45,095 bases of DNA, taken from Desulfomicrobium sp. (lineage in GTDB: Bacteria; Desulfobacterota; Desulfovibrionia; Desulfovibrionales; Desulfomicrobiaceae). The notes beneath the pieces were generated by a model. That model made no database searches. It worked only from the letters and a program-made list of their open reading frames with translations, and was not told where the DNA came from. The DNA is taken from NCBI GenBank assembly GCA_003542385.1, contig DPKT01000351.1:1178-46272 (forward strand), given 5' to 3'. A program made the position numbers and the translations under genes. Positions 11,654 to 43,076 of the stretch are shown here, piece by piece (the first letter of the stretch is position 1; every line of letters begins with the position of its first letter).

Positions 11654-11690
11654 GGGCCGGCTCCCTTTCCGCTGTTGCCGGCGCCGGGCA

Positions 11691-16738: not shown

Positions 16739-16817
16739 ATGGACGAGATGGACCTCATGGACCACGCATGCACCCGTCCATATTGTCCATCTCGTCCATG
16801 AGGTCCATCTCGTCCAT
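16739..16817. repeat. Intergenic palindrome built from ~9-bp ATGGAC/GTCCAT units
   Basis: 16739-16762 (ATGGACgagATGGACctcATGGAC) is the exact reverse complement of 16794-16817. Two extra GTCCAT units lie at 16776 and 16785. Confidence 0.85.
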
Positions 16818-16848: not shown

Positions 16849-17586
16849 TCAGTCGACCTCGGCTTTTTCGTGCCCGGGGAATACCACGGTGCATTTGAGA
16901 CCGGCGGGCAGGGCATGATCGGGGTTGGGCAGGGTCAGGCGTACGCCGAAGGTGCCGCTCGCCGCGTCGATGACGCGGTCTACGATGGTCACCGTCGCCT
17001 CGTGCCGTCCTCCCACTGGTTTTTCCGGGAGCACCTCGGCCTTCATGTCCACAGCGACCGTGTCGTACATCTCCGACGGCAGGATGACCTCCACGCACAG
17101 GGGGTCGATCTGGGCCAGCTTGAGGATAGGCCGGTTCTCGACGTATTCCCCCGGAGACATGTAGCGCTCCACGACCACCCCGTCGATGGTGCTCCGTATT
17201 TCAAGGCGTTTGACGATTTCGGAGGAATACCTGTAGTCGGCTTCGGCGAGGGCCTTTTCGGTCTCGGCTTCGTCCATGTCGTTGGCCGCGATGACATCCT
17301 TGCGATAGAGCGGGTTCATGCGGTCCATCTTGCGCTGGGCAAAATCCTTCTGGGCCCTTTTTAGCTCCATGGCAGCCTTCTCCACGCTGGAATGCAGCGT
17401 CGCCACCACCTGGCCCTTGCGGACCGTGTCGCCGCGGTCGAAGCCGACCGTGGCCAGGACCCCCTCTTGGGGACTTCCAACATGCACCACTTGGAACGGC
17501 GTGATCAGCCCGTCGGCCTGGAAGGCGTGGGCCGTAGCCACGGCCAGCGCAAAGACCATCCCCGCAAGCACGAATGTCCGTTTCAT
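16849..17586 (-). CDS. Periplasmic adaptor / membrane fusion protein (RND-MFP type) with signal peptide
   Basis: N-terminus MKRTFVLAGMVFALAVATAHA, lipoyl half-motifs GDTVRKGQVVATL and IRSTIDGVVVER...PGEYV, coiled-coil hairpin, IDAASGTFGVR. Confidence 0.85.
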   Translation of the reverse strand: MKRTFVLAGMVFALAVATAHAFQADGLITPFQVVHVGSPQEGVLATVGFDRGDTVRKGQVVATLHSSVEKAAMELKRAQKDFAQRKMDRMNPLYRKDVIAANDMDEAETEKALAEADYRYSSEIVKRLEIRSTIDGVVVERYMSPGEYVENRPILKLAQIDPLCVEVILPSEMYDTVAVDMKAEVLPEKPVGGRHEATVTIVDRVIDAASGTFGVRLTLPNPDHALPAGLKCTVVFPGHEKAEVD

Positions 17587-17599
17587 GGTATCCCCCGCT

Positions 17600-19597
17600 T
17601 CATTCCAGACGGCCCGAGAACGCCAAGGCGTCCTCCATCTGGGTGTCCAGCCTCAAGAGGTTGCGGCGCAGCCGCGCATGCAGCCGCTCTGCCGAGCGCT
17701 GGGCCATAAGCGCCAGCAGCCCGCACGCCCATTGTCCGCCGAGGGGCATGGGCGAGCGTAGGAGGGCCGCCGCGGACCAGCGCAGAAATGTCTTCACGTG
17801 GGTCGTGATCAGTTCGTCCTCAAGAGAAAGCACGGACTGGAAGGTGCCGGGATCGCCCTGTCGGCCGCAGCGCCCAAAGAGCTGTCGGTCGATGCGGCCA
17901 GCCTCGGAGCGTTCCGAGGCGATGACGTGCAGTCCGCCCAGTTCGGCCACGCCGGGGCCTAGGCGGATGTCCGTGCCCCGGCCGGCCATGTTCGTGGCCA
18001 CGGTGATCTGGCCGCGTTGACCGGCCTGGGCCACGATCTCGGCCTCTTGGCGGTCCTGCTCGGCGTTCAGCACCCTGTGGGGCAGTCCGGCCCGGTTGAG
18101 CAGGCCGCTCAAGAGTTCCGATGAGCCTACAGAACGCGTGCCAACCAGGATCGGCCGCCCGCTGCCGTGGATCTGCCCGATGGTTCCAACCACGGCCTCC
18201 CATTTCCGGCGTTCGGTGTCGAATGCCCGGCTCGGAAGGCCCTTGCGTCGAAGGGGGCGGTTCGTGGGCAGGGGGACCACGCGCAGACGGTAGATGGACC
18301 ACAGCTCCCGGGCCACCTCACGGGCGGTACCCGTCATGCCGGCCAGACGCAGGTAGCGGCGGAAGAATCGCTGGTAGCTTATTCGCGCCAGGGTGTCCTT
18401 GCGGCTGGTGGGATCGCAGCCCTCCTTGATCTCGATGAGTTGGTGAAGGCCCAACTCCCAGGATCGATCGGGCATCAGGCGCCCCGTGTACTCGTCGATG
18501 ATCTGGACCTTGCCGTCGCGGACGAGGTAGTGCTTGTCGCGCTCGAAGAGATACAGGGCCGAGAGTCCCTGCCGGACCAGTTCCTGGCGCTGCGGAGGGT
18601 TGGTCCATGCGCGGGCCTCGGCCCAGTCGAAGCCTTCGGTCTTGGCCTTGCCGCGGTCGCGTAGCTCCACGTTTCGTTCGCTCTCGGAGATGCTGAAATC
18701 ATCCCCGGCCGTGAGAGACGCGGCCAGATTGAGAGCCAGACGGTAGACGTTCTGGGCGGTCGAGGCCCCGGGGTCGGTGGAAATGATGAGGGGCGTTCGG
18801 GCCTCGTCGATAAGCACGCTGTCCGCCTCGTCCACGATGGCGAAACTTAGGCCGCGCATAAGCAGCCGGTTGGCCCGGGAGCTTTCTCCGTACAGGCGTT
18901 CGAGCTGCAGCCGCATGGGGCTTGGGCGGTCCCACATGACGATACGGTCTTTGAGGTAGTCGAAGGCCACCTCCTTGTTCGTGCAGTAGGTCACGTCGCA
19001 GGCGTAGGCCGCTCGGCGCGCGGCCGGGTCCATGCCCTGCCTGACGACACCCACAGTCAGTCCCAGAGCTTCGTAGATCGGACCCATCAGGGCGGCGTCG
19101 CGCCCGGCCAGATAGTCGTTGACCGTGATGATGTGCACGCGGGTCCCAGTCAGGGCCGCGGTGCAGGCTGGGAGTGTGGCTGTCAGGGTCTTGCCCTCGC
19201 CGGTCTCCATTTCCGCCACCATGCCGTTGAGGAGCACCAGGCCGCCGGACAGCTGTACGTCGAAATGCCGCATCCCGATCCGGCGGGACGCGGCCTCGCG
19301 GACCAAAGCGAAGGCCCGGGCCACTGCGTCGTCCCGCAGGCCCTCCATGCGCAGGGTCATGCCGATCTCGCGCCCGGTCTGCCTGATTTCGGGGTCCGTA
19401 AGACGCCCGATCTCCGCCCCGTGGTGGTCGATGCGACCAATCATGCTTGTTCCGAAACGCCCCCGTCCCGGACGTACCCATGGCGCCACCAAGGCGGACA
19501 GACCGGTCTCCAGGCGGTCGAGCCAGTTCTCACGTCTTTCCTCCCGCTCCGGGTAGATTCCGGCCGAGATCAGGGCGTTGGCGGTGTCCCTAGACAT
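17600..19597 (-). CDS. Accessory SecA paralog (SecA_DEAD-type), C-terminally truncated
   Basis: EMETGEGKTL, VNDYLAGRD, FDYLKD, IVDEADSVLIDEARTPLIIS, IIDEYTGR, GMTGTA, ATNMAGRGTDI, QLFGRCGRQGDPG, SLED. Only 665 aa; ends about 65 aa after SLED. Confidence 0.92.
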   Translation of the reverse strand: MSRDTANALISAGIYPEREERRENWLDRLETGLSALVAPWVRPGRGRFGTSMIGRIDHHGAEIGRLTDPEIRQTGREIGMTLRMEGLRDDAVARAFALVREAASRRIGMRHFDVQLSGGLVLLNGMVAEMETGEGKTLTATLPACTAALTGTRVHIITVNDYLAGRDAALMGPIYEALGLTVGVVRQGMDPAARRAAYACDVTYCTNKEVAFDYLKDRIVMWDRPSPMRLQLERLYGESSRANRLLMRGLSFAIVDEADSVLIDEARTPLIISTDPGASTAQNVYRLALNLAASLTAGDDFSISESERNVELRDRGKAKTEGFDWAEARAWTNPPQRQELVRQGLSALYLFERDKHYLVRDGKVQIIDEYTGRLMPDRSWELGLHQLIEIKEGCDPTSRKDTLARISYQRFFRRYLRLAGMTGTAREVARELWSIYRLRVVPLPTNRPLRRKGLPSRAFDTERRKWEAVVGTIGQIHGSGRPILVGTRSVGSSELLSGLLNRAGLPHRVLNAEQDRQEAEIVAQAGQRGQITVATNMAGRGTDIRLGPGVAELGGLHVIASERSEAGRIDRQLFGRCGRQGDPGTFQSVLSLEDELITTHVKTFLRWSAAALLRSPMPLGGQWACGLLALMAQRSAERLHARLRRNLLRLDTQMEDALAFSGRLE

Positions 19598-21737
19598 GAA
19601 ACCTCGTCAGGAAAAGTTGCCGCAGGGCGCGGTACCACCGCCAGACCAGGGGCTCATGGCCATGGTCGAAGCGGACGTAGACGCGTCCTCCGATGTTCAG
19701 GGTCCAGCGGGCCGATGGGGGTTCGACGTCGAACAGGAACATTTTCTGGAACGCGGTCAGGCCCATTTCGTCGCGCGGGTCGATGGCCACGGAACCGCCA
19801 CCGGTCTGTCCCAATGCCCTGCCTGGCAGGTGGTCCGTGGCGGCCGGCACTTCGCGCTTGAGGGCGGCTTCGGTGATCTGCGAAAAACTGTCCGGCAGCC
19901 TGAGTTCCACCGCCTTGGTCCTAGCCCGCACCAGATCCGCGTCCGGCTGGGACACGACCACCCGCACCGTGACCGTGGCCGGTTCGACAACATAGCCGAG
20001 CACTTCGCCCCGCCGAACGAAAAGACCGGGCAGGTCGCCCGGTTCGGGCACCAGGAACCTGCCCCCGATGGCGCTGTAGACCATCAGCTCGTCGGCCCTA
20101 CGCCGCGCGTCGTCGAGCTGGCCCGCCACGTGCTCCATTTCCTCGGCCGTGATCTGGGCCTTCAGCCTGTCCTCGAGGATCTGACTGCCGTGCAGGGTCT
20201 TCAGTTCTTCGTAACGGGCTTCGAGTACGCGGATGCGGGCGGGCAGGAAGGGGTCTGCGCACTGCACGAGCAGTTCGCCCGGGGACACCAGGCTGCCCGG
20301 CTTGGCCACGATGCGCTCCACGACGCCTTCAGCTTCGGCGCGCACGAAGGACTCCTCAGGCACCCACATGACCCCTTCAGTCCGCGTGCTCAGAGGAACC
20401 GGCACGAGGAAGACGGCGGCTGCGATGATGGCGGCCGCCCCCATGCTCACGACCATGGCCCGTCCTCTGCGGCGTCCCAGACGCGGCGAGGCGACAAGGA
20501 AGCGCAGCCCCTTGAAAAGCGGCAGGACAAACATGCTGGTTGCGGCCCAGACGGCCAGAAGCACGCCGACAAAGAAGAATTTTTCGGCGATGAAGAGGAC
20601 GATGAAGACGTAGATGAAGATTCGGTAGAAGAAGGCCGCAATCGAATAGACCAGTAACCAGGCTTTCTCTCCGGTCGTGGCCCAGGGAGGTTCCGCGTCC
20701 TGCATGCCGAAGAGTCGGCGCTGGACGAGGTAGGTCAGGTAGTTCATGCCCCGTGGGGCGAGGTTGGGGATTTCAAGCAGGTCCACCACAATGTAGTAGC
20801 CGTCGTAACGCAGCAGGGGGTTGATGTTGAAGAGCAGCGACGACACGCCGGCAATGAGCATGACGTTGTATGCCACGGCACGCACGGGTCCGGGCTCCAC
20901 TCCGACCCATACGAACATCGCCAGGGCCGCGATGAAGAGTTCCACGAACATGCCCGCTGCACCGACGAAGGCCCTTTCCCACTTGTCGCGGAAGGCCGAA
21001 GCCGTAGACGCGTCCACGTAGGGGATGGGGGTGAAGACGAGGAAGATGATGCCCATTTCGTGCACCTCGCCGCCCAGACGCTTGACGGCGAAGGCGTGGC
21101 CGAACTCGTGGAAGGCCTTGAGGATCGGGAAGATGACCCACATCAGCAGCAGGTTCCCCGGTGCCAGAACCCGGTCCGTGACGTCCTCGGTCAGTTCCGG
21201 CCAGTGCACGCCGGCCAGGAAGGCTGCCCAGGCCACCACAACCAGCCAGAGCAGTGCCCCGGCCCATCCGAAAAACGGTCTGACGACGCCTTGGAAGCGC
21301 ACCAGGATTGGTTCGGGGTCCAGGAGTTTGAAGCGCATGGACAGGGGGTTGCGGATGTTCTGCGTCAGCCTGCCGATTCGTCGTTTCTCGTGCCTTCGCT
21401 GCAGTTCAAAAATGTCGGGCGGCACGTCGCACTGCAGCACATCGGCCCCGTGCAGCTGACTCAGGATGCGGACCATCTCCTCCTGCGTCGGGGCGTCCTC
21501 GCCCAGACGCAGGCGTCCGATCTCCCAGATGTCCTGGACCGAGCGTTCGCCGTTCATGAGCCCGATGAGCTGGTAGGCGCCGGGCGTGAAGCGCATGTGC
21601 CGTCCCGAGGTGTGGTCCTGAAGCACGTACCACGGCTCGCCGCGGTACGTGTGACGGTGGATTTGCGCGTGACTGCGCAGGCGCGGCTTCAGGCTCGCGA
21701 CGCGATACCACGATGGGCTGTAGAGCGAGGATTTCAC
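19590..21737 (-). CDS. PqqD/RRE-like domain + M50 (site-2) metallopeptidase + membrane fusion protein fusion
   Basis: N-terminal winged-helix-like segment, HEFGH and NINPLLRYDG M50 motifs among TM helices, C-terminal MFP (EGVVERIVAKPGSLVSPGELL, coiled coil). Overlaps the SecA-like start by 8 bp. Confidence 0.88.
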   Translation of the reverse strand: MKSSLYSPSWYRVASLKPRLRSHAQIHRHTYRGEPWYVLQDHTSGRHMRFTPGAYQLIGLMNGERSVQDIWEIGRLRLGEDAPTQEEMVRILSQLHGADVLQCDVPPDIFELQRRHEKRRIGRLTQNIRNPLSMRFKLLDPEPILVRFQGVVRPFFGWAGALLWLVVVAWAAFLAGVHWPELTEDVTDRVLAPGNLLLMWVIFPILKAFHEFGHAFAVKRLGGEVHEMGIIFLVFTPIPYVDASTASAFRDKWERAFVGAAGMFVELFIAALAMFVWVGVEPGPVRAVAYNVMLIAGVSSLLFNINPLLRYDGYYIVVDLLEIPNLAPRGMNYLTYLVQRRLFGMQDAEPPWATTGEKAWLLVYSIAAFFYRIFIYVFIVLFIAEKFFFVGVLLAVWAATSMFVLPLFKGLRFLVASPRLGRRRGRAMVVSMGAAAIIAAAVFLVPVPLSTRTEGVMWVPEESFVRAEAEGVVERIVAKPGSLVSPGELLVQCADPFLPARIRVLEARYEELKTLHGSQILEDRLKAQITAEEMEHVAGQLDDARRRADELMVYSAIGGRFLVPEPGDLPGLFVRRGEVLGYVVEPATVTVRVVVSQPDADLVRARTKAVELRLPDSFSQITEAALKREVPAATDHLPGRALGQTGGGSVAIDPRDEMGLTAFQKMFLFDVEPPSARWTLNIGGRVYVRFDHGHEPLVWRWYRALRQLFLTRFHV

Positions 21738-21747
21738 GGGGCCCTCC

Positions 21748-23640: not shown

Positions 23641-23720
23641 AGACTGTGTCCCGTCCCGGGCCGCTGATTCAGGCGCGCCGGCGGCGGCCGCGGCACATGG
23701 CCTGCGCGCTCCGTGTTCGA

Positions 23721-24053
23721 CTACTGCACGTCGGTGGGCAGGCCGATGTCCAGCTTGCCGTACTTGGCTTCATAGTCCTTGAGGATGTTGCCGAGCATGA
23801 GCGCCAGCCGCTTGGCCACGAAGGGGCTCATGACGATGCGGTCGGCGAGTTGTACCGTGACCTCCTTCTGGCCGGCGTGCCAGGCCTGGTTCATGCCGAA
23901 GAGCAGCACGATCTCCTCACGCGTCCCGGCCACGTTGCACACGTTGGCATAGGTGCTCTTCATGTTGGTGTCATCCCAGCGAACCTTCATCTGGGCGTTC
24001 TGGGTCACGCCTTCTGAGCCTGCTTCGGATGCGTCGCGACCTCGAGTGGACAT
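23721..24053 (-). CDS. DUF3467-like small cytoplasmic protein
   Basis: YANVCNV...EEIVLLFG...RIVMSPFVAKRL...YEAKYG pattern recognised as DUF3467. RBS AGGAGG. Confidence 0.75.
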   Translation of the reverse strand: MSTRGRDASEAGSEGVTQNAQMKVRWDDTNMKSTYANVCNVAGTREEIVLLFGMNQAWHAGQKEVTVQLADRIVMSPFVAKRLALMLGNILKDYEAKYGKLDIGLPTDVQ

Positions 24054-24103
24054 AGCGTTTCCTCCTGCAATTGGTGATGGAGCATGGATGCATATTTATG
24101 ACA

Positions 24104-24133
24104 ACAATACCGCTCATTCACATAGTGGGTCAA
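24104..24133 (-). promoter_or_regulatory. Possible sigma-70 promoter for the export module
   Basis: TTGACC-18 bp-TATTGT about 50 bp upstream of the DUF3467 start, in an AT-richer spacer. Confidence 0.45.
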
Positions 24134-24240
24134 GGGATTTCACTTTTTTGCGCGGAAGTCCGCCGCAATTCCGACGCTTCAGCTTAGCGTCCATATGTTG
24201 CCGAAGCGTGCGGAGCAGGATCGTCATCCTGGACGATCAG

Positions 24241-24285
24241 AAAAAAACATGCCGGAAACACGCATGGTTGCGGTTCCCGGCATGT
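24241..24285 (-). terminator. Rho-independent terminator after the giant gene
   Basis: ACATGCCGG (24247-55) / CCGGCATGT (24277-85) stem with further internal pairing, followed on the minus strand by T7 (A-run 24241-47). Confidence 0.7.
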
Positions 24286-24350
24286 GTTGCGTCATAATCC
24301 TTGGTGCACCTTTGTGTCCCGTTTCTCCTTCGTTATGTTCTAAACCCCTG

Positions 24351-33300: not shown

Positions 33301-36300
33301 GAGTTGGCGCCGATGTTCAGGAGCAGGGCGCCGTCGCCGCGCTCGGTAGCCAGGATGGGTTCACGGTCGAAGGGTATGCTGAATTCGAAGAGCACGATCT
33401 TGGGCGTGATGTCGAAGGTGTACTCGAACATCAGCGCCTTGATGTAGGCCCGCAACTGGGCCGAGATGTCGCCGTAGACGTCGAAGATGGCCACGGGAGC
33501 CAAGGCCGGGTTGCCTGTGCGGGCCTCGTAGAGGAAGGCTCCGAGCATCTCGTCGACGCGCACCTTGCCGTCGCGGTCAGGGTCGTAGAGGTCGAAGTTG
33601 ACCGTCAGGATCAGTCCGCCCTCGACTCCCGCGCTGGCGATGCCGAGGTTCAGCTCCGCCCCGGCGAAGACCTCGCCTTCCAGCACGAGTTCGGGCACAT
33701 CGGTGCCGCCCGTGCCTTGCGGCAGATCGGTGTCGCTGATGAAGAAGCCGGCCAGTAGGTCAAGGGGGTTCTCGAAATCGCCTTCGACGAATCTGGCCAC
33801 GCCCTCGGTGTCATAGCCGAAAGCAAGGTCCACGGTGACGCCCGCACCGATGGTCAGGACGACGTTGAAGGGGCCCCACACCGGGAAGCTTTGCCGCCAC
33901 TGGAAGTCAAGCCCGAAGGGCGGCAGGTCGTAGGTGATGAGCGTCGCGGGCCTGCCGAGCAGCAGCCCGAAGATTTCGGAAGGACTCTCGAAGATGGGGA
34001 AGCCGAAGCTGCCCGCTCCGGGCGCGGTGCCGTTCAGGACGCTGGAACTGGTCGCCCCGGTGGAACCGCTCGTGTCGATGCCGTCGAGGATCGTGTCCAG
34101 CCCGTCCTCGAACCCGCCCAGGGCATCGCCCAGGGAGAACCCGCCCTCGCCGCTGGAGTCGCTGCCGAGGTCGAAGTCGGGCAGAGTCAGGTTGAACTTG
34201 AGCTCGTCCGTTGAACCGGGGCCGATGATGCTCAAGCTGCCGATGGGCACGATGAGGGAACCGGGCTCGGCCGGGATGCTGTTCACCAGGGAGATGATGT
34301 CGGCGATGGCGTAGATCATGCCTGTTTCGACGTAGCCGGTCAGACCGGCGATATCGACCAGGGTGATGGTCCGCCCCGCCAGGTCGGAGACCACCGGAAT
34401 CCGCGCGGTCATGAAGTCGATGACAGGCTGCAGGGGTTCCGTGATGTCCTGGATGTTCTCCACGATGGGCCCGAGGAAGTCGCCGAGGAAGGAGCCCATG
34501 TCGATGCCGACATGGCGGAACTCAACCAGTTCGAGCATCTTCGAGAAGTCGTAGTTCTCGGCGCCGATGAGATCGCCCGTCGACCAGTCGAGGACGAATT
34601 GCGCCCCGACCTGCGGGATGAGGGCCGACACGGCGTCGGGGATGATGTCTTCGTTGAATTTTGCGACGAGTCCGAGGTTGACCTCGGCGTCGACCTGGAG
34701 GTCCACGTCCGCGCGCAGCTTGCCGAGTTCGGAGAAGCTCAGGTGTTCATCCTTTTCTTCGTCGGTATCGTCCTCGTTGTAGAGGTCGACCTGGAAAACG
34801 GCCGTCAGCCGCGTCTCGTCGACATCGCTGTCGCCAGCGCCGTTTGGCCTGTTCACGAGCTGCTGTGTCGCGGCGTCCCAGTATTGCTGATCGAAGTTGT
34901 CCCAACTGGCGTCCACCTTGAAGCGATCACGGAATTCGTCGTAGGCGCCGGTGGCGTCTCCCGGGGAACCGTCGCCCAGGGAGAAGACGTCCACCTGCAG
35001 GAAGGCCAGCTTGCCCGAGAGGCGGTCGCCCGGGTTGAACCAGGCGTCCGCACGCAGGTAGAGCTCGTCGGAGATGTCAATGTCGTCTGTCGCATCATTG
35101 GTGGTGCCTTCAATGTCGAGCTTCCGCGGGTTGTCGATATCGATGTAGGCACCGTCGGTCCGGTTGATGCCGATGCCCAGGGCCAGGTCCCACAGCAGGA
35201 GCAGGTTCAGCTTGGCGTCGGACTCCAGGCCCAGGGCCGGGAAGCCTATGTCGAAGCCAAGGTCGATGTCCGGGGTGTAGCGGTCGCCGAGACGCAGATC
35301 CCACTGCACCTGGTCATCCATCCAGTCGGTCGGGGTGTCTTCTCCCAAATAGGTGAAGGTGATGAAATCGTCCGCCGTGTCCTTGTCCACGGTGCCGGCA
35401 TTGTAGGCATTCCAGTCGACGATGCTGCCGTCGGTCGGGTCGACGAGCTTGCCGAGGCCGGGCAGGGAATGGAAGGCCGCGTAGAAGGCGGCCGGATCGC
35501 TGGCATCCCACACGTCGCCGCCGGGGCCGAGGATGGTGAAGAGGAAGTTCTGCACGAAATCGCCGGCCACTTCGGGCGCGTTGGCGATGATATCCCTGAA
35601 GGGCTGGATGATCTGGCTGCGGATGTTCTCGATAAAGTCGCCGCCCGCCGCCAGGCTGTCGCCGATGAACGGCAGTTCGATGCCGAAGACCTCGCCGTAG
35701 AGGAAGTTCTGGACCTGCTCCATGAACAGATCCAGGGCGTCGATGGCGAGGCCGACGTTGTCGAAGAGGCTCAGGTTGCTGAAGTCGATGCTCGACAGGT
35801 CGGGAACGTAAGGGATTAGGTTGCCGAAGACGAAGTCGCCGTCAGCCGAAAGCGAGATGGTCGGATTGAAGCGGATGTCTCCCAGGTAATCTGAGTCTGT
35901 GGGGAAGAAGAGCGGCAAGGTGGCGTTGACGACCGGATCGGCGATGCCCGAGAGGTCGAAGCCTTCAAAGGCGCCGGCCATGTCCACCCAACCGTCGGTA
36001 CCGCCGCTGAATTCAAAGCCGAGGTCGACCCGTGCCGTCCCGCCGGTGACGAACAATCCCAGCGGGCCGAGGGCCGCGTTGAAGGTCAGTGTGTCGCTGT
36101 AGGCCTCGAAGCTGCCGGTGATGCTGGTATCGTTTTCATAGAGGTATATTTCGCCGGTATCGAGGTTGATGCCGAAAGCCAGCCTGGCATCCACATAACC
36201 CGTCGCGCCGAGGCCCGCCGCGCCTTGCAGGCTCAGGGGGCCGAGATCGACGCCGGCCAGATCGCCCAGATCCAGGTCCACGTCGATGGCTTTCTTGAAG

Positions 36301-39300
36301 CCCACGGGCAGGCGCAGATCGATGCGAAGGATGTCGTCGCCGTCCAGGGTGGCGAAGGCGAACTTGAGCACGTCCGAGGCCGGGTCGGTGATGCCGTACT
36401 GCTGGAAGTAGGCCTGCATGGCCGCGGCCGGGTCAAGTTCCTTGCTGAAGTCGGGCAGCCCGAAGTTCTCCCGGATCTTCTGGGCCAGCATCTGCAGGCT
36501 TCCGGCCGGATTCTGCCGGATGTCCTCCACTGCGGCGCGCAGACGGTCGACGAAGTCCATGACGTCGTCGAGGCTCAGGCCCAGGAACGGGATTTCGGTC
36601 CTGAAGAAGTCGTACGTGGTGTCGAATTCATCCAAGAACCCGAGCAGGCCATCCATGGCGTCCATGACCTGATCGAAACCGATGTCCTGGAAATCGCCGA
36701 GGTTGCCGAGGGCTGTTTCGAAATGCTGTCCGAGGCTGTCGAGGACATCCAGGGTCGGCAGGCCGGGGTCGAACGAACCGATTTTTTCAAGCGCTTCAAT
36801 CCCGGCGTCGGTCGACCAGTACGGCAGGCCAGAGAGCGGCGTGACAGTGAAACGTATCCCCGAGAACGGGGACGCGCCTTGGAGTTTCAGACTGCCGGAG
36901 GTGGCGACGATGTAGTCATCGAGTTTCGCCTTGGCGATTGCGTAGTTGAAATCGGCCACAAGGTCGGCAAGCGAGGTGTTCGCTGCACCGCCACCGATCC
37001 CCGTGTCGAGGTTGTCGCCGTCGGTGTTGTCGGCCAGCACCGTCACGGTGCGGGTTACGCCGCCGTCTATGGCCACCTCGAAACTGAAGTCTTCAACCAG
37101 GACATAGTCGCCAAAGGGATCACCCAGCGTGACGAACGGAGGCGCGGCGAAGGCGTTGCCGAGGTTGTCGAGGGAGACGATGATCCTGCCGTCGCCCAGG
37201 TTGAGCGGGGTGGCCATCCCGGAGATGGCGCCGTCGAGGGTGGCCAGGAGGCCGAAGTCGGCGGTGCCGGTGAACGTGGGCCTGCTGATGACGGCGGACA
37301 GTTCGTCGATGGTTCCGGGCAGAACAGCCTTAGTGACGCTGTCCTCGGCCGTGAGTGCTTTGAACAGGTCGGTCATCGTCCGCTCAGGCGGACCAGCGTA
37401 AACGATGCTGCTGGCGAAGTCGCCGGTGTAGAGGGTTTCCTGGGGAGCCCCCGGTTCGGCCTGGAGAGATTCGTCGATATCGGGTGTGGCCGGGTCGTCG
37501 GTTTTCATCCAGGGCGTGGCAACGCTGGGGTTGAACGGTCCGATCAGGTTGACGCCGACGAAGCCGAAGGCTCCCTTGGCGCTCAGTGCGTCGTATTCCG
37601 GCGTGGAGGGGTCGTCGATGGCCTTGACGGTGACGGTCGCGTCAAGGAAGGGCTCGGAGCCCAGGTTGCGCACGAAGACGCGGTCGGCCAGTTTGATGGC
37701 GGCAATGGCTTGACCTTCGATCAGCCCATCCGGGGTTTCATCGACGGTTGTCGTGTCGGCCCCGAATATTCCCAGAGAAATTGCCGCGCCGCTACGGTTC
37801 ACCGTATCGACTCGGAACAGGGATGAACCCGTCGAGGAGTCGCGCAGGTTGATGGCCGTGCCGGAAGCGTCGTATTCGAGCGTGACCAGATGATCGGTCT
37901 GTGCGTAGATTCTGTCGGCGACCATTCCGATGTTTGTCGCGTCGTCAAGGGACACGCGGTAGACATGGCCATTTTGCGTGTAGATCAGCAGATCCGCGGA
38001 ATCAGCTTCGACGACTCCGTCGATATCAGGCGGATCGAGTTGTGGGTGTGGTATCAGATGCAAATCTGTCGCCGCAGGATTCGTCGGCGAGAGGGCTTCC
38101 ACGCTGAAGCCTGTGTAGTCGGTGCCGATCTCGGCACCCGCCGCCTGCATCAGCACCATCCGGTAGCCGTCGTTGGATGCGGCAACGTACGGGCGCAGGT
38201 CGACGACCACGTCGTTTGACGGGTCGGCGTCGCCGTCAAACAACACGGCCTTGCTCAGGGCGCGGTTCATGTCCGAGACCAACGAGTAGATGCTTGAGTT
38301 GTCGAGGTAGTCAGCCCGTCCCGTCGCAGGGTCGACCGTGCCGACCTTGACCGTATAGGCGTTGCCGTCCAGCGTGCCGCCCGTGAAGCTCACCGTGAAC
38401 GTGGCTTCGCCGCCCGGACCGTAATAGAGGGGCGCGGACTTGTTGGCGAGCACGGATAGATCGGCGGTCGCCGTCTGTCCGGTTTCAATCCCCAGCGCCC
38501 CGGCGCCGGCGGTCACCTCAAAGGACAGCACGGACGGGTCGATGGCGCGTAGCACGATGCGCTGACCGCTGACCTGGGCCAGTATTTTCCCGGCAAGGTC
38601 GATGTCCGCGGAGATGACGGCGTTCAAATCCGCCACGAGCTCGGAGATGCCGGCGTTGGGGTCGGTGCCTGGGAGCGCACCGTTGGTGGCGTCTGCATCG
38701 ATATTCAGGGTTTTGTTCAAGGTGCCGCTGGTGGTCGTGATGGACAGGCCGAGGCTGATGTCGTCCGTCAGTTGGCCGAGATACGGCGAGGGGATGTCTT
38801 TGTCGCCTTTGAGTTGCACGCCTGCGGAGCTCATGGCCGTGCTATCGTAGCTGCTGTTCGTGAATCCGAGTTCTCCAGCTGAGCCGCCCGCCAGGACGAC
38901 AATATTGATGACGCTTGCCGAAGCAGCCTTGAGCACGATTCTCTGGCCTTCTGCCGCGGCCACGATGCGCCCTCCAACCCCCTTGTCGGTCAGGGCTTCG
39001 TTGAGATCGTCCACGAGGTCGCCAATGTCGTCATTGTCTGCCGTATCGGCGGCAAATACCGTGATGGTGCCATAAACACCGTCAAGTGACGGATCCGAGT
39101 ACGTCACGTTCAGCATGAAGCTCTGGTCTGCCGTGAGATGGCCGTCGGCTGAGACGATATCCGTCGTGGCAACAAGCGGTTGTAGCCATTCCCAGTTGAT
39201 GCCGAGTTCCTGTATGGCAGCTTGGGCCTCCATCCGGAAGAAGTTCACGTCGGGGTCGATGGCGCCGTAGACTATCTGGTTGCCGTCCCGACTGGCCACG

Positions 39301-42300
39301 AAGCGGTCCAGCAGGGTCTTGCCGCCGCCTATGTCCACCCTTCCGAAGGCAAGGTTGATGTCATTGACGAGGTCCGTGACGGTCCGGTTGCCGTCGGTGT
39401 CGGTCTTGAGCACGGTCACGGAATAGGTCGTGGATGATAACCCTTCGAACAGCGTGACCGTGAACGTCTTGTTCTCGGTGAGCTGCACGGATGCGGGCGT
39501 CGCTCCGGTCAGGGACACCGTGACCGCCTGTTCGGGTTGCAGCCCGAGTTCCGTGAAGGCGGTGCTGGTCGCTGTGGAATCGATGCTGAAACCGATCACG
39601 TCGGCATCCGAGGTGATGAGGCGGACGCGGTCCCCGACCGCTTCCGCAGTGATCCCGTAATCGGCCTTGAGATGCAGGGTATTGGCTGTGGCGTTGCCGA
39701 ATTCGTCGAGTTCCTTGGCCGCGTCCAGGGCCAGGTCGATGTCCTGCAGGAGATTTTCCAGGGTCTTGTTTGAGTCGGTCAGGCTCTTGGGAACCGTGAC
39801 CCGGGCCATCATGACCGCGCCGCCCGCAGTGGTTACGGTCACTTCGAAGATGGCGTCGGCCGAGAGACGGCCGACATAGCTCGAGACGTCGTCAACGCCG
39901 GTTACGGCCAGGATGTCGCTGATGGTGACACCCTTGTCGCCGTTGAGACCGCCAGTCCCGTCCAGCGTCGTCTCGGCGCTTATGGCTTTGGCCGCACTGC
40001 CCAGCTTGAATCCAAGAGTGGTGTTGAGGAACCCTTCCACTCCGACGTACAGCGTCGACTCGGTGAAGAGGCCGTCCAGGGGACTCAGGTCGAGGCTGAA
40101 GTCGGCCGGCACCGCGACGTCTTCAAAGGGGTGGCTGAGACGAATGTCGTAAGTCAGTTCGGACTTGCCCGTGTGGAAGCGCGGATTGATGGCGTCGCTC
40201 CCGAGCGGGAGCGCGACGAGCCGGGCGGCCAGTTCCTGCGCGGTGTCGAAGGTCACCACCAGATTGGCGTTGTCGCCATCCATGAGCCAGGCGATGAGCT
40301 TGCCGGTGTCTGTGGCATCGTCGGCGCCCGGCTTGGGTTGCAGCCCGTCGTCGCCGTCATCGATGATCAGTGCGTCCTCAAGCACATCGGCGAAATCGAG
40401 GACGTCGCCCATAACCGCCTGGGCGAAGGGGAGCTGGTAATTGGCCAGGAGTTGGCTTTCGGGCAGGCGTTCAAGCCATGATTGGAGCTGAGAAAGCCCA
40501 CCCAGCACACTATTGGCGTTGATGACGGTGAAGTCGAGCATGTTCGCCCATGCCGTATCCCCCGGCGACCAGTCGGCCGGGTCGATGTCCGTGTCCGCCT
40601 TGTCTGTGCGAATTTGGAGCAGCGTTTTGCCGGCGGCGTTGGTCAGGTTGAAATCCGGCCGGTCGTATTCGTCCTCGCCTTCAACCATGCTGAAGCCGGT
40701 GAAGGGGTTGATGTTGACCTTGAGGGTTGCCGTGGGCTCATAGACCATGCCAAACTGGTCCTTGAGGCCAGCCTTGACTTTCAGGGGGAGGCTGATCTGC
40801 AGGGCGTCGTCCGTGTTCCAGCCGGCCTTGTTCGAAAGGAGATTGTCTGCGGAGGTGCTGTGAAGTTCGTCGTAGGTGATAACGTTTTCGGCATCGAGGA
40901 TGAGGGCGCGGCTGATCTCGATCGATTTGGCATCGGGCTGCAGGAGGCTGGTCCTGTAGTACAGTTCGATGTTGCCTGCGTTGTCCCGCGCGAATACTCC
41001 GTAAGAAAACAGTGGGCTGATCATTTGGAATTGCAGGTTGGAATCCCGCAGTTCCGCATTGATGTCTGAGATCAGACTAGCCAGCGTGACGACGTCGTCG
41101 CTGGGGTCGCCGTTTCCATCGTCGAACAGAGTCGGCGTCACAGTGACCAGGATTGGTAGCGCTCCGTCAACGGAAACGAGGAAGCTGACAGGCGTCACAT
41201 CGGTGGTGCCGATCATGGACGCAGCACTCGTGGCGGTAATGGTTTCGTAAGGGTCCGCATAGAGTTCATTGCCGCTGAAGCCCAGTGGGGTGATGTCGGC
41301 GTCGGGCAGGGAGAACTTGAGACGCCATTCCCCCCCGGAATAATATTTACCCGCAGTGATCAGACCGCTGAGGTCGTACGGCGACGCGTCAGCCAGGGCG
41401 TCGTTGATGTCGTCAATGAGATCGTCGAGGGTCGCGTTGTCCTGGGTGCTGGCCGCGGTGATCTTGATCTGCGATAAGGGCGACGTGGCGGTCAGGCCTA
41501 TTTTCAGGGTGAAAATGACGTCCGAGGGGAGGATGAAGTTTTCCGGCTCGGGCACTTCCCCGGCCAGGAGACCTGTCGTGCCCATGACCGGGAGAGTCTG
41601 GACAAATCCGAGGGCGTCGGGATGGCTCGGGTCGTGGAACAGGGTGTCCACACCCATGTCGATGAGGAACTCGCCAGTCGATGTGCTCGTGCCCAGGAAG
41701 CCCACATTGACGTCGGTCACGATGCCGGTGTGATGGGCCTTGACCCCGATTTCCAGTGAACCGTCGGGAACCGTGATGAAGAAATCGTGGACATCCGTGG
41801 GGCCGGTGGGAGTTCCATCCGGGAGTGCCAGGGTGTCGGGCGGCGGAGTGGGATTGGGGATGGTCTTTGCTGCGTAGCCTTGCAGGCCAATGATCAGGTC
41901 GTCGAAGTATACCCCCGCCTCGACCTGGATTTTGGTGGCTTCCAGTCCTGGTTCGGCGATGCCGCTCGAATTCGCCGGCTTTTCGGTGCCTACGGAGATG
42001 TTGAGTTGGTCGGACTGATAGCCGAGGTCCATGACGACATCGTGGTTGAAGACAAATTTGACGTCTTCCATCGTCAGCGTGAATCCGGGCCCGAGGTTAT
42101 GGGCAGTGACGGTGCCGATATCGACTTCGACCAGGGATTCACCGTTCGTGGCGAGCAGTTGTCCCGACGGATAGGCCGAATGATATGCGTGGCCGGAGAC
42201 GAGGGCCGCAGGAGCTTGCAGGCCTGATTCAAGGAATGTGTCGAGCTCGGCCAGGAATTCGCTGACGGACTTGTTGACCCAACTCGAACCATCCCATTTC

Positions 42301-43076
42301 AGATGGTTGAAGTCTGACCAGGGGTCCGTGATCGGACTGCCCCACGCTCCGCCGGGGTATGCCAGCGTCGGATAGTACTGGGCGTCGCTGTTGTCCATCC
42401 AGTCCTGCATCTGTCCGACAACAAGGACATCGAATGCTTCCTGCCATTCGACAGCACCGCTGTCGTCCATATCCATGGCCGACAGCGCGAGTTCGGCCGA
42501 AGGGACAAATGCCCACCACAGTACCCCTTGATAACTGTAGTAGTAGTCTCCGCTAATCAGATGCCAGACATTGAGCGGGTCGGTCATGTCGAGGTGGACG
42601 CCGCTGCCGGGTTGGTGAACCAGCGGTGCGGTCCCGTCCCCGTCAGAGTCGTTGAAATCGTTGCCGAGGAACAATGTGCCTGGCATGTATTGCGCTTCCA
42701 GGAGGCCCGCCACCGGGGCATCTATTCCATCGATGCGTCCGTCCCCGTCTCGGTCCGCAACGTCGATCTTCAGAAGATCCTTGATTTCCGGCGTCACATA
42801 GGCGCCGGATTCGCCCGAGTCGGCGTCGAACCAGAGGACGCCCGGCACGGGATTTTCAAAGGAAGAGTCTTGGGTCACGACGTATTCTTGGAGACGGGAG
42901 GCCATTTCCGACAGGCCGTCGCCAATGGCTATCGAAACGCCCGGTATCAGATCGTCAGCCGAGAGAAGAACGCGCGGTTCAAGGACTTCGAGATGAACCT
43001 TTTGGCCTCGCTTCACGGCACTCTTTCTCGCCCTCGCGCTCTCGCTCTTCCAAATCTTCCGTAAAAACGAATTCAT
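24351..43076 (-). CDS. Giant (6241 aa) LEPRxLL-motif extracellular protein with RTX-like Ca-binding repeats, Calx-beta domains and a C-terminal metzincin-like domain
   Basis: Uninterrupted 18.7-kb ORF. Start MNSFLRK at 43076 with RBS GGGGAGG. LEPRVLLSA near the N-terminus, dozens of GGxGxDx(L/I)xG(DNG) repeats, two ISVSDASVxEGD Calx-beta units, HEFGHVLG. Very Asp/Gly-rich. Confidence 0.92.
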   Translation of the reverse strand: MNSFLRKIWKSESARARKSAVKRGQKVHLEVLEPRVLLSADDLIPGVSIAIGDGLSEMASRLQEYVVTQDSSFENPVPGVLWFDADSGESGAYVTPEIKDLLKIDVADRDGDGRIDGIDAPVAGLLEAQYMPGTLFLGNDFNDSDGDGTAPLVHQPGSGVHLDMTDPLNVWHLISGDYYYSYQGVLWWAFVPSAELALSAMDMDDSGAVEWQEAFDVLVVGQMQDWMDNSDAQYYPTLAYPGGAWGSPITDPWSDFNHLKWDGSSWVNKSVSEFLAELDTFLESGLQAPAALVSGHAYHSAYPSGQLLATNGESLVEVDIGTVTAHNLGPGFTLTMEDVKFVFNHDVVMDLGYQSDQLNISVGTEKPANSSGIAEPGLEATKIQVEAGVYFDDLIIGLQGYAAKTIPNPTPPPDTLALPDGTPTGPTDVHDFFITVPDGSLEIGVKAHHTGIVTDVNVGFLGTSTSTGEFLIDMGVDTLFHDPSHPDALGFVQTLPVMGTTGLLAGEVPEPENFILPSDVIFTLKIGLTATSPLSQIKITAASTQDNATLDDLIDDINDALADASPYDLSGLITAGKYYSGGEWRLKFSLPDADITPLGFSGNELYADPYETITATSAASMIGTTDVTPVSFLVSVDGALPILVTVTPTLFDDGNGDPSDDVVTLASLISDINAELRDSNLQFQMISPLFSYGVFARDNAGNIELYYRTSLLQPDAKSIEISRALILDAENVITYDELHSTSADNLLSNKAGWNTDDALQISLPLKVKAGLKDQFGMVYEPTATLKVNINPFTGFSMVEGEDEYDRPDFNLTNAAGKTLLQIRTDKADTDIDPADWSPGDTAWANMLDFTVINANSVLGGLSQLQSWLERLPESQLLANYQLPFAQAVMGDVLDFADVLEDALIIDDGDDGLQPKPGADDATDTGKLIAWLMDGDNANLVVTFDTAQELAARLVALPLGSDAINPRFHTGKSELTYDIRLSHPFEDVAVPADFSLDLSPLDGLFTESTLYVGVEGFLNTTLGFKLGSAAKAISAETTLDGTGGLNGDKGVTISDILAVTGVDDVSSYVGRLSADAIFEVTVTTAGGAVMMARVTVPKSLTDSNKTLENLLQDIDLALDAAKELDEFGNATANTLHLKADYGITAEAVGDRVRLITSDADVIGFSIDSTATSTAFTELGLQPEQAVTVSLTGATPASVQLTENKTFTVTLFEGLSSTTYSVTVLKTDTDGNRTVTDLVNDINLAFGRVDIGGGKTLLDRFVASRDGNQIVYGAIDPDVNFFRMEAQAAIQELGINWEWLQPLVATTDIVSADGHLTADQSFMLNVTYSDPSLDGVYGTITVFAADTADNDDIGDLVDDLNEALTDKGVGGRIVAAAEGQRIVLKAASASVINIVVLAGGSAGELGFTNSSYDSTAMSSAGVQLKGDKDIPSPYLGQLTDDISLGLSITTTSGTLNKTLNIDADATNGALPGTDPNAGISELVADLNAVISADIDLAGKILAQVSGQRIVLRAIDPSVLSFEVTAGAGALGIETGQTATADLSVLANKSAPLYYGPGGEATFTVSFTGGTLDGNAYTVKVGTVDPATGRADYLDNSSIYSLVSDMNRALSKAVLFDGDADPSNDVVVDLRPYVAASNDGYRMVLMQAAGAEIGTDYTGFSVEALSPTNPAATDLHLIPHPQLDPPDIDGVVEADSADLLIYTQNGHVYRVSLDDATNIGMVADRIYAQTDHLVTLEYDASGTAINLRDSSTGSSLFRVDTVNRSGAAISLGIFGADTTTVDETPDGLIEGQAIAAIKLADRVFVRNLGSEPFLDATVTVKAIDDPSTPEYDALSAKGAFGFVGVNLIGPFNPSVATPWMKTDDPATPDIDESLQAEPGAPQETLYTGDFASSIVYAGPPERTMTDLFKALTAEDSVTKAVLPGTIDELSAVISRPTFTGTADFGLLATLDGAISGMATPLNLGDGRIIVSLDNLGNAFAAPPFVTLGDPFGDYVLVEDFSFEVAIDGGVTRTVTVLADNTDGDNLDTGIGGGAANTSLADLVADFNYAIAKAKLDDYIVATSGSLKLQGASPFSGIRFTVTPLSGLPYWSTDAGIEALEKIGSFDPGLPTLDVLDSLGQHFETALGNLGDFQDIGFDQVMDAMDGLLGFLDEFDTTYDFFRTEIPFLGLSLDDVMDFVDRLRAAVEDIRQNPAGSLQMLAQKIRENFGLPDFSKELDPAAAMQAYFQQYGITDPASDVLKFAFATLDGDDILRIDLRLPVGFKKAIDVDLDLGDLAGVDLGPLSLQGAAGLGATGYVDARLAFGINLDTGEIYLYENDTSITGSFEAYSDTLTFNAALGPLGLFVTGGTARVDLGFEFSGGTDGWVDMAGAFEGFDLSGIADPVVNATLPLFFPTDSDYLGDIRFNPTISLSADGDFVFGNLIPYVPDLSSIDFSNLSLFDNVGLAIDALDLFMEQVQNFLYGEVFGIELPFIGDSLAAGGDFIENIRSQIIQPFRDIIANAPEVAGDFVQNFLFTILGPGGDVWDASDPAAFYAAFHSLPGLGKLVDPTDGSIVDWNAYNAGTVDKDTADDFITFTYLGEDTPTDWMDDQVQWDLRLGDRYTPDIDLGFDIGFPALGLESDAKLNLLLLWDLALGIGINRTDGAYIDIDNPRKLDIEGTTNDATDDIDISDELYLRADAWFNPGDRLSGKLAFLQVDVFSLGDGSPGDATGAYDEFRDRFKVDASWDNFDQQYWDAATQQLVNRPNGAGDSDVDETRLTAVFQVDLYNEDDTDEEKDEHLSFSELGKLRADVDLQVDAEVNLGLVAKFNEDIIPDAVSALIPQVGAQFVLDWSTGDLIGAENYDFSKMLELVEFRHVGIDMGSFLGDFLGPIVENIQDITEPLQPVIDFMTARIPVVSDLAGRTITLVDIAGLTGYVETGMIYAIADIISLVNSIPAEPGSLIVPIGSLSIIGPGSTDELKFNLTLPDFDLGSDSSGEGGFSLGDALGGFEDGLDTILDGIDTSGSTGATSSSVLNGTAPGAGSFGFPIFESPSEIFGLLLGRPATLITYDLPPFGLDFQWRQSFPVWGPFNVVLTIGAGVTVDLAFGYDTEGVARFVEGDFENPLDLLAGFFISDTDLPQGTGGTDVPELVLEGEVFAGAELNLGIASAGVEGGLILTVNFDLYDPDRDGKVRVDEMLGAFLYEARTGNPALAPVAIFDVYGDISAQLRAYIKALMFEYTFDITPKIVLFEFSIPFDREPILATERGDGALLLNIGANSGSRLNGDTDDFGEEIRVRSIGGGEVEVWGLGVPQSAAQVYKADHIIAYGGEGDDRIFLDLGTSGITYAIEGGSGDDIIEVTGGTGAGLIRGGLGNDSLIGGGGADVIYGEQGLDTIAGGAGNDILFGDGGTLVYENDGTTLKRLFVMPGSNDGDDHLLGDAGIDLLVGGGGNDWLEGGGDKDLLIGDGVNIQYASGALPSTVWTPDAAKAGMVGYDQFGYLTLRLTDTGTGGNDRLFGQDGADVMYGGYGYDLLQGGAGNDRMLGQTGMDTMYGGGGSDLMLGGAHDDIMFGYADAYATENADTVADGDPDSGDTIFGEDGNDYIRGQEGADRLYGDRGADIIFGDAGNDTIKGGINPDTIFGGADDDRIDGEAGNDIVFGDDGLVAFLEFYTTAQATELKADGVLRDVIEIGSLIRTDASGNRLIGDGGATVASLDALVGTFTDDGLKETLDLIVTEVDVDALDGDGTDGNDTINGGAGDDVVLGGAGNDWIGGDIAPADAGALPEINPIGDDVLIGDGGRIELFGRLNRMIMSIPDAESVGIDHIFGDNGNDIAFGGTSGDFIYGGHGSGRAPVVQIEGEDGEFYSPDKDILLGDNGVIELDFGIARRIYTSDVTDQDTPLTNTGGADLIEGNEADDIILGGVNGSPDSLFGNTGNDIILGDNGLLDFGLDPVALTGVEDIESPALEHAQTFYITRYSDTVPVKVTVPAGEYADMGALVAAINTALANAKSSEAVPKDVDLSGDIEALAEGNRITLARKDGSVMQSFLLAASVGNSLGFAPLQTGPDFGTLELIISQPYKVVDQATQTVDDSVILGGGDEISGNEGNDLLIGGVGEDTMYGDNASASSGDDDGEDIMLGDNARIELSGTDGRLLVFGTAVDLITTTDTEEATGGADTMSGNAGNDIMLGGVNNDDGDELNGFEKDLLYGDRALPNSTTIADDGDDIMLGDNGLLDFTYDPADYPGDEPGMADTDRMTLDLIRSFEDALGGIDVISGNKGLDVAIGGTAGDIIYGDDANASAGAADLGDLLIGDNADIFLVAAPLAPDSGFDLKLVLDAAVKTIRTTDCDDPDNTGGSDTISGNAGGDIIAGGVYGDTLYGDRLDPTTSGGKNTTLLDGDDIILGDNGAFEWLSTGRLFDVLGIDLEANNPALWAKYGAGTADTDLSTLDLVTTEQPNSGGRDLIYGDNGRDMMFGGTNADEMYGDDGDGVGAVNNNDLMFGDHGRLYPQFSALRAPGQDWRLAFNSRNFFAIDTGDTDGDPLTPNFGGEGDRMWGEEGDDGMLGQQGDDRMWGGSGNDDMTGGHNVSGGIDELSLTTISASLDGTGISTPAIDDVNDLMDGGTGDDAMAGDNAIVWRRGDDLSPRFRALTAPSIYTTSETAIIANLGSTWQSDPADAVGRDIELIDHADTTAAGLFGADVMAGGADNDVMFGQLANDLMQGDGYIGVNDEDDATITYMISVEDDVDPDEDLYFNIPEAATDGDDYLEGNGGGDLMYGGLGQDDIIGGSSALFGLTTEAMRPDASDVIFGGAGIDIGRNHIGDATEDGTTHVITTTAEGHARDADYIMGDNANVYRLVQGGASGTNPADAKDLFRTFNYDNYGTLKIIPRAMEQLDYHLGGADYNGGEYVNGAAKLEGQPADNGAADLIHGESGDDIIFGMTGSDVIFGEGQDDDIIGGYGNDWITGGTGQDGVLGDDGLILTSRNSTAGEPLNGIAGLLASDPRPKYADGNVLNEVIKTPGDIQYALINVSGELKKTMDLVPFSFDKTWLGNDDEFPDNQDNQPYADDIIFGGLGSDWLHGGSGDDAISGAEALMDAYVPTYDASGNPNGILNLGYGAVGLPATTNPGDVLAFNPLDGDGQHTNNRFRAGEFDLYDEYDPRRIILLTPQGELYKGTDGIEGVDYFQFLLNFNKDEGVLRPGGTVPKATGQQTETYPEVRDDGRDAIFGDLGNDWLVGGTGADDMYGGWGNDLLNADDNHDTNDGLNDIPDTHPFYQDRAYGGAGRDVLIGNTGGDRLIDWVGEYNSYLVPYAPFGAASVSRTLQPFLPEFLYALSAADGADFTRQGDETRNGEPEGEMGLVLQKDYAWQDQTGAPADPQAGNIPGGARDVLRSAGFNDGTSDAFFVDSGVWSVVSGRYQVAPTALGGDALSVFYVDEYIPSYFEMLATIRAVKPTGGYGANAYLIFDYQNSEDFKFAGINVSTSKLEIGYHDASGWHVLVQAPYTSSLKADTDYNVFLALNGSTATLRVNNKTTLTYTFAPRVDGYGIEHFLHEGMVGLGANNARAAIDNVVVQRIAPEMTSTQTVEFSSQAEFEGLFQTPVNGIADGGSLTLSAAPGGTAVDLADMRIAPASVLSLEAVLRTANQGGFVFDSYGPEDFKFVTLDVESDKILVGHSTAKGGIVIDAERSATLDAGTDYTLGITIAERTVSVTLDGGAALSFAFNALVTDGEFGLLARNGDVLFDRLVVRTDDPAYATPALPTISVSDASVTEGDGGQKTVEVTFTLSTEWDAPVTVAYATVAGTAQAGEDYLEQNGTVTFDPGETSRTVAFTVYGDDVVEPDETFTIELFDSENAVIADKAGLVTIVNDDAPAPTVPVISVSDASVLEGDKTNKTKVSVTISLSAATTDTVSVRLKTQDGTAWSGFDYVAADTAITFAPGETSKTYTLTVNGDKVAEFDETFDVVLSEAVGATIGDGTGVITIKNDDGTPLTADIPASGEMEGVVATETDLAPIVEAAIDLWAEALGEEAVAALHDVEFQVGDLSGQILGLTGNGTVFIDADAAGYGWFVDPTPLDDSEFTGGTAEGMDLLTAVMHEFGHVLGFRDVPAALDCLMSGTLEEGVRHLPSDLAMVTMPSAAKSSLFNFAPPSNGIPSGWIFEHGKFGDGGSHGWLDKILKRFRGRTAHDGLPSLITMTNGAALHNPVEGMDETAEMLVRLDLADATALPGDAVTERAQAWLGDFLLDGTGKAAPNSKIKIEM
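27230..33170 (-). repeat. RTX/hemolysin-type nonapeptide repeat region within the giant CDS (approximate limits)
   Basis: Many GGxGxDxLxG and GxDxxxGDNG units, visible as recurring gccgttgtcgcc / atgatgtcgtcgcc on the + strand. Confidence 0.85.

Follow-up and report, generated by a model that had tools for sequence, protein, structure and literature searches.

How might a protein of 6,241 residues, with calcium-binding repeats of the RTX type, be exported from a cell in which the adjoining genes encode three periplasmic adaptors (MFPs), a site-2 protease and a short SecA, but no ABC transporter? The question is raised by a contig of Desulfomicrobium sp. (DPKT01000351.1, assembly GCA_003542385.1), of which a stretch of 45,095 nucleotides, hereafter called the window, was analysed. 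ORF calls on the window place six co-oriented genes on the minus strand, from position 43076 down to 16849:

24351 to 43076, minus strand: acidic giant cargo of 6,241 aa with a net charge of -711, of RTX/Calx-beta surface type, with an N-terminal LEPRxLL leader
23721 to 24053, minus strand: DUF3467 protein, 110 aa
21748 to 23640, minus strand: GAF-MFP, with a GAF domain, one membrane helix (aa 356-374) and a periplasmic adaptor (MFP)
19590 to 21737, minus strand: M50-MFP, with a PqqD/RRE-like domain, a site-2 (M50) protease and a periplasmic adaptor
17600 to 19597, minus strand: short SecA paralogue, 665 aa, with SecA_DEAD, PP_bind and P-loop domains
16849 to 17586, minus strand: MFP, RND-MFP-like (TIGR01730 at 121 bits), whose signal peptide is of the cleavable type

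An earlier note on this DNA, made from its letters alone, had described this gene order and its tight packing, and both were borne out, the gaps from the cargo to the last MFP being 297, 80, 10, -8 and 13 bp. Pfam assigned to the five small genes, in order, PF11950, GAF + HlyD, Peptidase_M50 + HlyD, SecA_DEAD + PP_bind + P-loop, and HlyD; the Pfam and NCBIfam check of the proteins thereby confirmed the proposed DUF3467, GAF-adaptor, M50-adaptor, SecA without wing, free adaptor and LEPRxLL giant. The same domain scan found no ABC, RND or secY gene among the six, in agreement with the note, which had remarked on the lack of an ABC ATPase, an RND pump and a secY2. The closest relatives of the locus are found in Desulfomicrobium-like assemblies (about 79% protein identity), and the host genome (G000) is 63% complete.

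The locus belongs to a module known from computational work of 2015. Kamneva, Poudel and Ward (2015; PMC4452313), whom the note had cited for similar gene neighbourhoods, reported the same set of GAF-HlyD, M50-HlyD, wingless SecA and HlyD genes with no ABC, and hypothesized that a SecA_DEAD protein stands in for the ABC ATPase while M50 forms the pore. Desulfomicrobium baculatum appears in a table of that paper, whose carriers also include the cultured Methylobacterium extorquens AM1 and Ruegeria pomeroyi DSS-3, and the window has the features of its loci, namely a SecA_DEAD protein without most of SecA_SW, with M50-HlyD, GAF-HlyD and HlyD neighbours and no ABC; judging from locus tags, cluster 5 of that study would sit where DUF3467 sits (PMC4452313). 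The paper, in its available text, does not mention a cargo, a leader, an RRE or the cleavage of a leader for the locus and, because the survey starts from SecA, does not describe forms in which SecA is absent or Walker-dead. No experimental study of the module, and no description of its cargo link, was found in the open-access literature; nor is the system described in the available portions of PMC13723633 or of 10.1101/2023.11.21.568195, the latter reporting wingless SecA domains within giant Omnitrophota proteins.

The remainder of the window (positions 1-16605) holds ordinary neighbours: an ABC ATPase, a sigma-54 regulator, sensor kinases, a TrkA-domain protein, a thioesterase, TerC and a GGDEF-hemerythrin protein. 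Just downstream of the last adaptor gene, at 16730-16815, short repeated units form an inverted repeat, possibly a terminator or a small repeat element, which bears an 18-base insertion in one run contig. Upstream of the giant, an ORF of 183 aa (43770-44321, minus strand), without Pfam or NCBIfam match, has homologues beside the operon or the giant in six other loci and may be an accessory gene. A weak promoter-like site (9/12 positions) precedes DUF3467, and Rfam matched nothing in the window. RNA-run contigs match pieces of the operon near-identically, and contigs alone cannot show transcription.

The cargo starts at an ATG at 43076 with a strong ribosome-binding site, in an open frame that extends to 43121, and has the following features:

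42957 to 43076, minus strand: leader (aa 1-40), a basic N-terminal part and then an LExLEPRxLLSA motif, from NF012209, alignment, hydropathy and charge
27264 to 33029, minus strand: region of RTX-like, Ca-binding repeats (aa 3350-5262), matched 26 times by the pattern
24834 to 24848, minus strand: HExGH zinc-binding motif (aa 6077)
24354 to 24425, minus strand: C-terminal W-x-x-D-F-L motif, common to 9 of 33 cargoes

The LEPR-XLL profile NF012209 matches at the N-terminus of this very large protein with 21.4 bits, above the curated cut-off of 17. The motif occupies aa 29-40 (42957-42992) and includes an invariant L-E-x-R, the first 30 residues carry a net charge of +7, and hydropathy indicates no hydrophobic signal core within aa 1-40. 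The leader has the same ExLExRxLL form as the planctomycete cell-surface motif PF07595, which the available text of PMC8567305 presumes to serve export without assigning a machine to it, and as the LEPRxLL leaders of the Chlorobium giants Cag_663/665, which are made and exported (10.64898/2026.03.19.712371). In the text available, the latter study describes these giants as lacking known transport signals, proposes a SapC/TolC/HlyD route for them, and does not assign the leader to the M50 module.

Further along the cargo, Pfam found RTX (PF00353) and Calx-beta domains, the RTX-like region stopping about 980 aa short of the C-terminus. The HExGH motif may mark a metalloprotease domain, and Peptidase_M10 was matched near the C-terminus of a related giant. 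The W-x-x-D-F-L motif, a possible C-terminal signal, was seen at none of 815 control ORF ends, a comparison in which the pattern was chosen after looking at the cargoes and many of the control ends are off-frame. Near the C-terminus of 6 of 11 distant-subfamily cargoes (L053, L115, L117, L119, L121 and L125), an amphipathic F-x-x-Q-L stretch was observed, against 11 of 815 controls. RTX repeats were found in none of the five distant-subfamily cargoes scanned, and the host genome has five RTX-bearing ORFs besides the giant.

The earlier note had made its proposal depend on conserved linkage of these genes across genomes, and the neighbourhood survey revealed linkage of the module with large leader-bearing proteins. 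An M50-MFP relative was found in 51 loci, of which 45 contain a SecA-like gene and 28 contain DUF3467, so the arrangement is not due to chance; five of the six loci without a SecA-like gene stop at a contig edge. NF012209 was detected in 37 of 50 operon-bearing genomes (L052 left out) and in 0 of 14 controls, and in 17 of those 37 the leader and M50 are on the same contig (hand count). The survey was extended to 400 Pseudomonadota genomes, none used in building the profiles: the M50 fusion was present in 83, the leader in 48, both in 47 and neither in 316. Hence 47 of the 48 leader-positive genomes hold the M50 fusion, and the sole leader-only match sits in a 32-aa frame; in at least 28 of the 47, leader and M50 lie within 50 kb on one contig (hand count). 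The leader was found in 29 of 31 genomes of the window's subfamily and in 18 of 52 of a distant subfamily; the 36 of the 83 M50-positive genomes without a leader match thus belong mostly to the distant subfamily (34 of its 52), where the leader profile is weak.

Within the phylum of the host (200 genomes), M50 was found in 14, NF012209 in 9 and both in 6. Two genomes, G119 and G141, are 94-95% complete and have leaders but no M50 match; in both, the best leader gene is cut off by the end of its contig. A weaker test is provided by 121 Planctomycetota genomes, 57 of which have the M50-adaptor core: PF07595 was matched in 17 of these 57 and in 4 of the 64 M50-negative genomes. It should be noted that, because the genomes are related, all these counts overstate independence. 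TolC, which the note had named as partner, is encoded inside many related loci by TolC-family genes; the window has none, and three are located elsewhere in the host genome. ABC domains occur in just four scanned loci, never within the operon. At one locus (L017) MacB-type permeases lie directly downstream, and at another (L050) the entire operon is split into many frames, likely by assembly errors. It is highly probable that the giant, with its leader, is handled by the module in one way or another.

The protein predicted to read the leader is the M50-MFP, which carries:

21435 to 21686, minus strand: PqqD/RRE-like domain (aa 18-101)
21096 to 21110, minus strand: HExxH motif of M50
20802 to 20828, minus strand: NxxPxxxxD motif of M50

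By hydropathy its membrane part has seven hydrophobic segments and, with the two zinc-site motifs, the features of a site-2 protease; this number of segments would place the RRE inside and the adaptor outside. Both motifs are present in 98 of 98 M50 homologues, 46 of them retrieved by a scan that used the motif among its patterns and 52 by profile searches that did not (the count leaves out five duplicate loci and those fragments that do not reach across the site). When the N-terminal regions were aligned, 43 of 44 matched PqqD (E <= 1, best 7e-9), and the top PDB match of their profile was PqqD 3g2b (E = 0.004); the window's own N-terminal 125 aa by itself gave no PqqD match, nor did any of 13 full-length M50s, and of 20 M50s from the distant subfamily, 16 have an RRE that is weak or was not detected. 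In two loci (L143:8775-9224 and L144:9293-9796), ordered DUF3467, TolC, adaptor, RRE, M50, SecA, the N-terminal RRE part is a separate ORF ahead of M50. The best NCBIfam match of the M50-MFP is the daptide intramembrane protease NF041824 (E = 7e-46), with 157 bits, below the family threshold of 300. Because the catalytic residues are kept throughout the homologues and a PqqD/RRE-like domain is attached to them, M50 is probably a leader peptidase, a role which the note had overlooked, rather than a portal alone, and there are good grounds for expecting that the leader is cleaved. As far as we are aware, no solved M50 protein is a protein channel.

The source of energy is a separate matter. In the earlier note, and in the hypothesis of Kamneva et al. 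(2015), the short SecA is an obligatory ATP motor which pushes the cargo through an M50 pore. The ATPase motifs of the paralogue are indeed intact in the window:

19187 to 19201, minus strand: Walker A of the SecA paralogue, intact
18821 to 18832, minus strand: DEAD motif of the SecA paralogue, intact

They are likewise intact in 36 of 41 full-length paralogues, the secA-like gene overlaps that of M50 by 8 bp, and a second SecA_DEAD protein was found in 28 of 30 genomes of the window's subfamily; where the paralogue is missing, housekeeping SecA might substitute for it. The use of ATP in this locus is plausible, since most loci of the subfamily, the window included, have an intact paralogue. 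Against the motor reading stands its architecture. Pfam recognized both nucleotide-binding domains and the preprotein-binding domain but no SecA_SW, and the protein could be aligned to Thermotoga SecA only as far as residue 646 of 871; it therefore lacks the wing and, from where we take it to lie within SecA, the two-helix finger. On length and domain loss, the idea that this is the housekeeping SecA was also rejected; a canonical secA was not found in the host genome, which, as noted, is incomplete.

Moreover, the paralogue has repeatedly lost its ATPase motifs or is not there at all. The motifs are gone in 5 of the 41 full-length paralogues, and the genomes of these five hold no other paralogue. 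Over 98 loci, 64 have a Walker A (including one truncated and one frameshifted copy), 9 are Walker-dead, 19 lack the gene, 5 are unknown and 1 is partial, counts that are not frequencies because the loci were picked partly for oddness; in an even sample of the window's subfamily, 6 of 43 loci are Walker-dead (one seen in part) and 2 are without the gene (hand count). Parsimony on the M50 tree (FastTree) gives the Walker-dead copies four origins, at least two of them forced by strong branches; the M50 tree was used instead of a quick-method SecA tree, which groups these copies on long branches. The dead copies are retained under selection: dN/dS is 0.17 for a Seongchinamella pair, similar to intact pairs, and a looser 0.47-0.71 for Burkholderiales pairs, at high divergence. 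In three of three Walker-dead Burkholderiales loci, the genes for DUF3467 and the GAF-adaptor are separated by an opposite-strand gene for a methyltransferase with PKMT-type domains:

L013:4535-6037, opposite strand: methyltransferase
L014:6222-7652, opposite strand: methyltransferase
L022:5829-7349, opposite strand: methyltransferase

As for absence, the paralogue is cleanly missing in G480 and G626, and absent from two single-contig genomes (G159 and G017) whose loci read leader-giant, TolC, adaptors, M50. The distant subfamily is ordered leader-giant, TolC, adaptor, GAF-adaptor, M50-adaptor, with no paralogue in 11 of 11 fetched loci, and 47 of 49 genomes having this subfamily only (52 minus the three weakest) contain a single SecA of canonical length; five genomes of the host's phylum, two of them single contigs, likewise have one SecA only. 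These absences are to be read with the reservation that very diverged copies could be missed elsewhere, as the Pfam search missed a Walker-dead copy in G264. Pushing by SecA thus does not stand as a general rule, and an obligatory SecA motor appears unlikely; the short SecA is likely an optional feeder and not the defining motor.

Less can be said about DUF3467. Its single-sequence fold was poor (pLDDT 59, all-helical) and an alignment-based model was used instead, which predicts three strands plus a helix. Structurally, this model comes nearest to COMM domains, a bacterial COMMD-like protein among them (Z about 5), but none is a clear relative; over COMM/PUR/PC4-like folds the best Z was 5.3, with an rmsd of 3.0 over 58 aligned residues. 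Foldseek gave no match at E <= 0.001, and a PDB sequence search and an Atlas search (the latter for DUF3467 only) added nothing. DUF3467 is an accessory protein, likely a chaperone. Four longer proteins (370-600 aa) have a DUF3467-like N-terminus (L018:19850-21037, L019:6209-7318, L024:2031-3836 and L036:12075-13244), and two of them adjoin radical-SAM genes.

The reading that we prefer, and consider somewhat better than even, is that the five small genes encode a leader-guided, TolC-coupled and ABC-free exporter dedicated to the neighbouring giant, in which the membrane domain of M50 is the gate, the leader is cleaved, folding outside the cell acts as a ratchet and SecA is an optional feeder. 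What the analysis itself establishes is the anatomy of the locus, its conservation and its linkage. The PqqD/RRE-like domain would bind the leader in the cytoplasm, and the site-2 protease, judging from its invariant catalytic residues, would cut near the end of the motif. The M50 membrane domain, together with the membrane helices of the adaptors, would then gate the inner membrane, and the three adaptors would build a mixed duct to a TolC encoded elsewhere in the genome. Calcium-driven folding outside would ratchet the chain outward. In this locus, the intact SecA paralogue may clamp and feed the chain, while DUF3467 would act as chaperone and GAF would provide the trigger.

A different division of labour would leave export to a canonical type I ABC transporter encoded elsewhere and acting C-terminus first; the module would merely process, tether or release the giant, with M50 cutting an N-terminal retention tag by a logic like that of LapA/LapG. 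The cargo does have RTX repeats, and a 4.8-kb contig of the host genome (G000:C93:858-4281) encodes a canonical type I ABC of the LssB type with its HlyD (922 and 380 bits, above cut-offs), which keeps an ABC acting in trans, a dependence that the note had named as refuting its proposal, under consideration; the substrate gene of this pair is not on contig C93. The motifs seen at the C-termini of cargoes, 9 of 33 in one set (the window's cargo included) and 6 of 11 in the other, would allow C-terminus-first export, as has been proposed for the two Chlorobium LEPRxLL giants (10.64898/2026.03.19.712371). On the other hand, a type I HlyD was matched in 42 of 50 module-plus-leader genomes and not in the other 8, in 3 of which all candidates were scored; it was not matched in G194, where a giant of 19,211 residues lies beside the operon, nor in G403 (all candidates scored). 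Many cargoes, furthermore, lack RTX repeats, and the module carries its own adaptors and often its own TolC, so that export by an ABC in trans is improbable.

A two-step route, in which the cargo passes through SecYEG, is cut by M50 in the role of a special signal peptidase, and is taken over from the periplasm by adaptors and TolC, would account for the SecA homologue in the operon, the basic N-region of the leader and the adaptor that seems free in the periplasm, and a periplasmic signal was reported for the Chlorobium giants (10.64898/2026.03.19.712371). We regard it as quite unlikely, considering that the leader has no hydrophobic core, that the paralogue lacks the C-terminal part contacting SecY, and that secY is absent from the operon. 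Export powered by the ribosome during translation was also considered, and is less likely given that the Chlorobium giants are mostly in the cytoplasmic fraction (10.64898/2026.03.19.712371).

Still, M50 and GAF could suggest something other than transport. Site-2 proteases and GAF domains are usually regulatory, and the nearest profile is that of a peptide-maturation enzyme, yet a unit for signalling or modification, with cleavage of leader-bearing proteins, structural adaptors and no role in export, is very unlikely in view of the TolC-family genes within many loci, the conservation of three adaptors and the extracellular domains of the cargoes.

The exporter reading can be set against systems already known. 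With type I systems (HlyB-HlyD-TolC, LapBCE) the locus would share an adaptor and TolC duct and a giant acidic RTX cargo, but it has no ABC transporter, an N-terminal leader and three different adaptors; adaptor scores are 64 and 30 bits against the cut-off of 209 of the type I HlyD family TIGR01843. Of the uncleaved C-terminal signal that goes with one-step type I export, a partial motif alone was observed. In the peptidase-containing ABC transporters of bacteriocins the exporter itself binds and cuts an N-terminal leader, using a C39 protease on small peptides, whereas here a site-2 protease is fused to an adaptor and the cargoes have 1,000-19,000 residues. As in SecA2/SecY2, a second SecA would be dedicated to a large surface protein; in contrast to that system, there is no secY2, the paralogue has no wing or finger and falls below every SecA2 cut-off, and the envelope parts are Gram-negative. 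The closest parallel for the peptidase is daptide MpaP, an RRE-fused site-2 protease which removes leaders with an ELExMEAP motif resembling ExLEPR (10.1101/2023.03.08.531785); M50, however, is fused here to a periplasmic adaptor, and its putative substrate is a giant protein and not a short peptide.

Three things go further than Kamneva et al. (2015) and undercut the notion of a SecA-powered system: the link to the cargo, the reading of M50 as a peptidase and, most of all, the existence of SecA-less and Walker-dead forms. It is conceivable, at somewhat less than even confidence, that these loci represent an unrecognised class of Gram-negative secretion, with a core of TolC, adaptor, GAF-adaptor and site-2-protease-adaptor without dedicated ATPase, in which the LEPRxLL/planctomycete leader is read as a RiPP-like signal, the largest bacterial proteins are exported, and a bolt-on, the short SecA, has more than once degenerated to a pseudo-ATPase that is nevertheless conserved.

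The M50-adaptor core is widespread: among the genomes searched it occurs in 83 of the 400 from Pseudomonadota, in 57 of the 121 from Planctomycetota and in 14 of the 200 from the host's own phylum. Because intact, dead and SecA-less versions exist in nature, the energy question can be directly addressed in cultured strains. If the exporter reading is true, it would provide the missing export route for the long-noted planctomycete/LEPRxLL signal, and a route for proteins whose length can reach tens of thousands of residues, including the symbiosis giants of Chlorobium; a site-2 protease would then serve as the inner-membrane part of a TolC machine.
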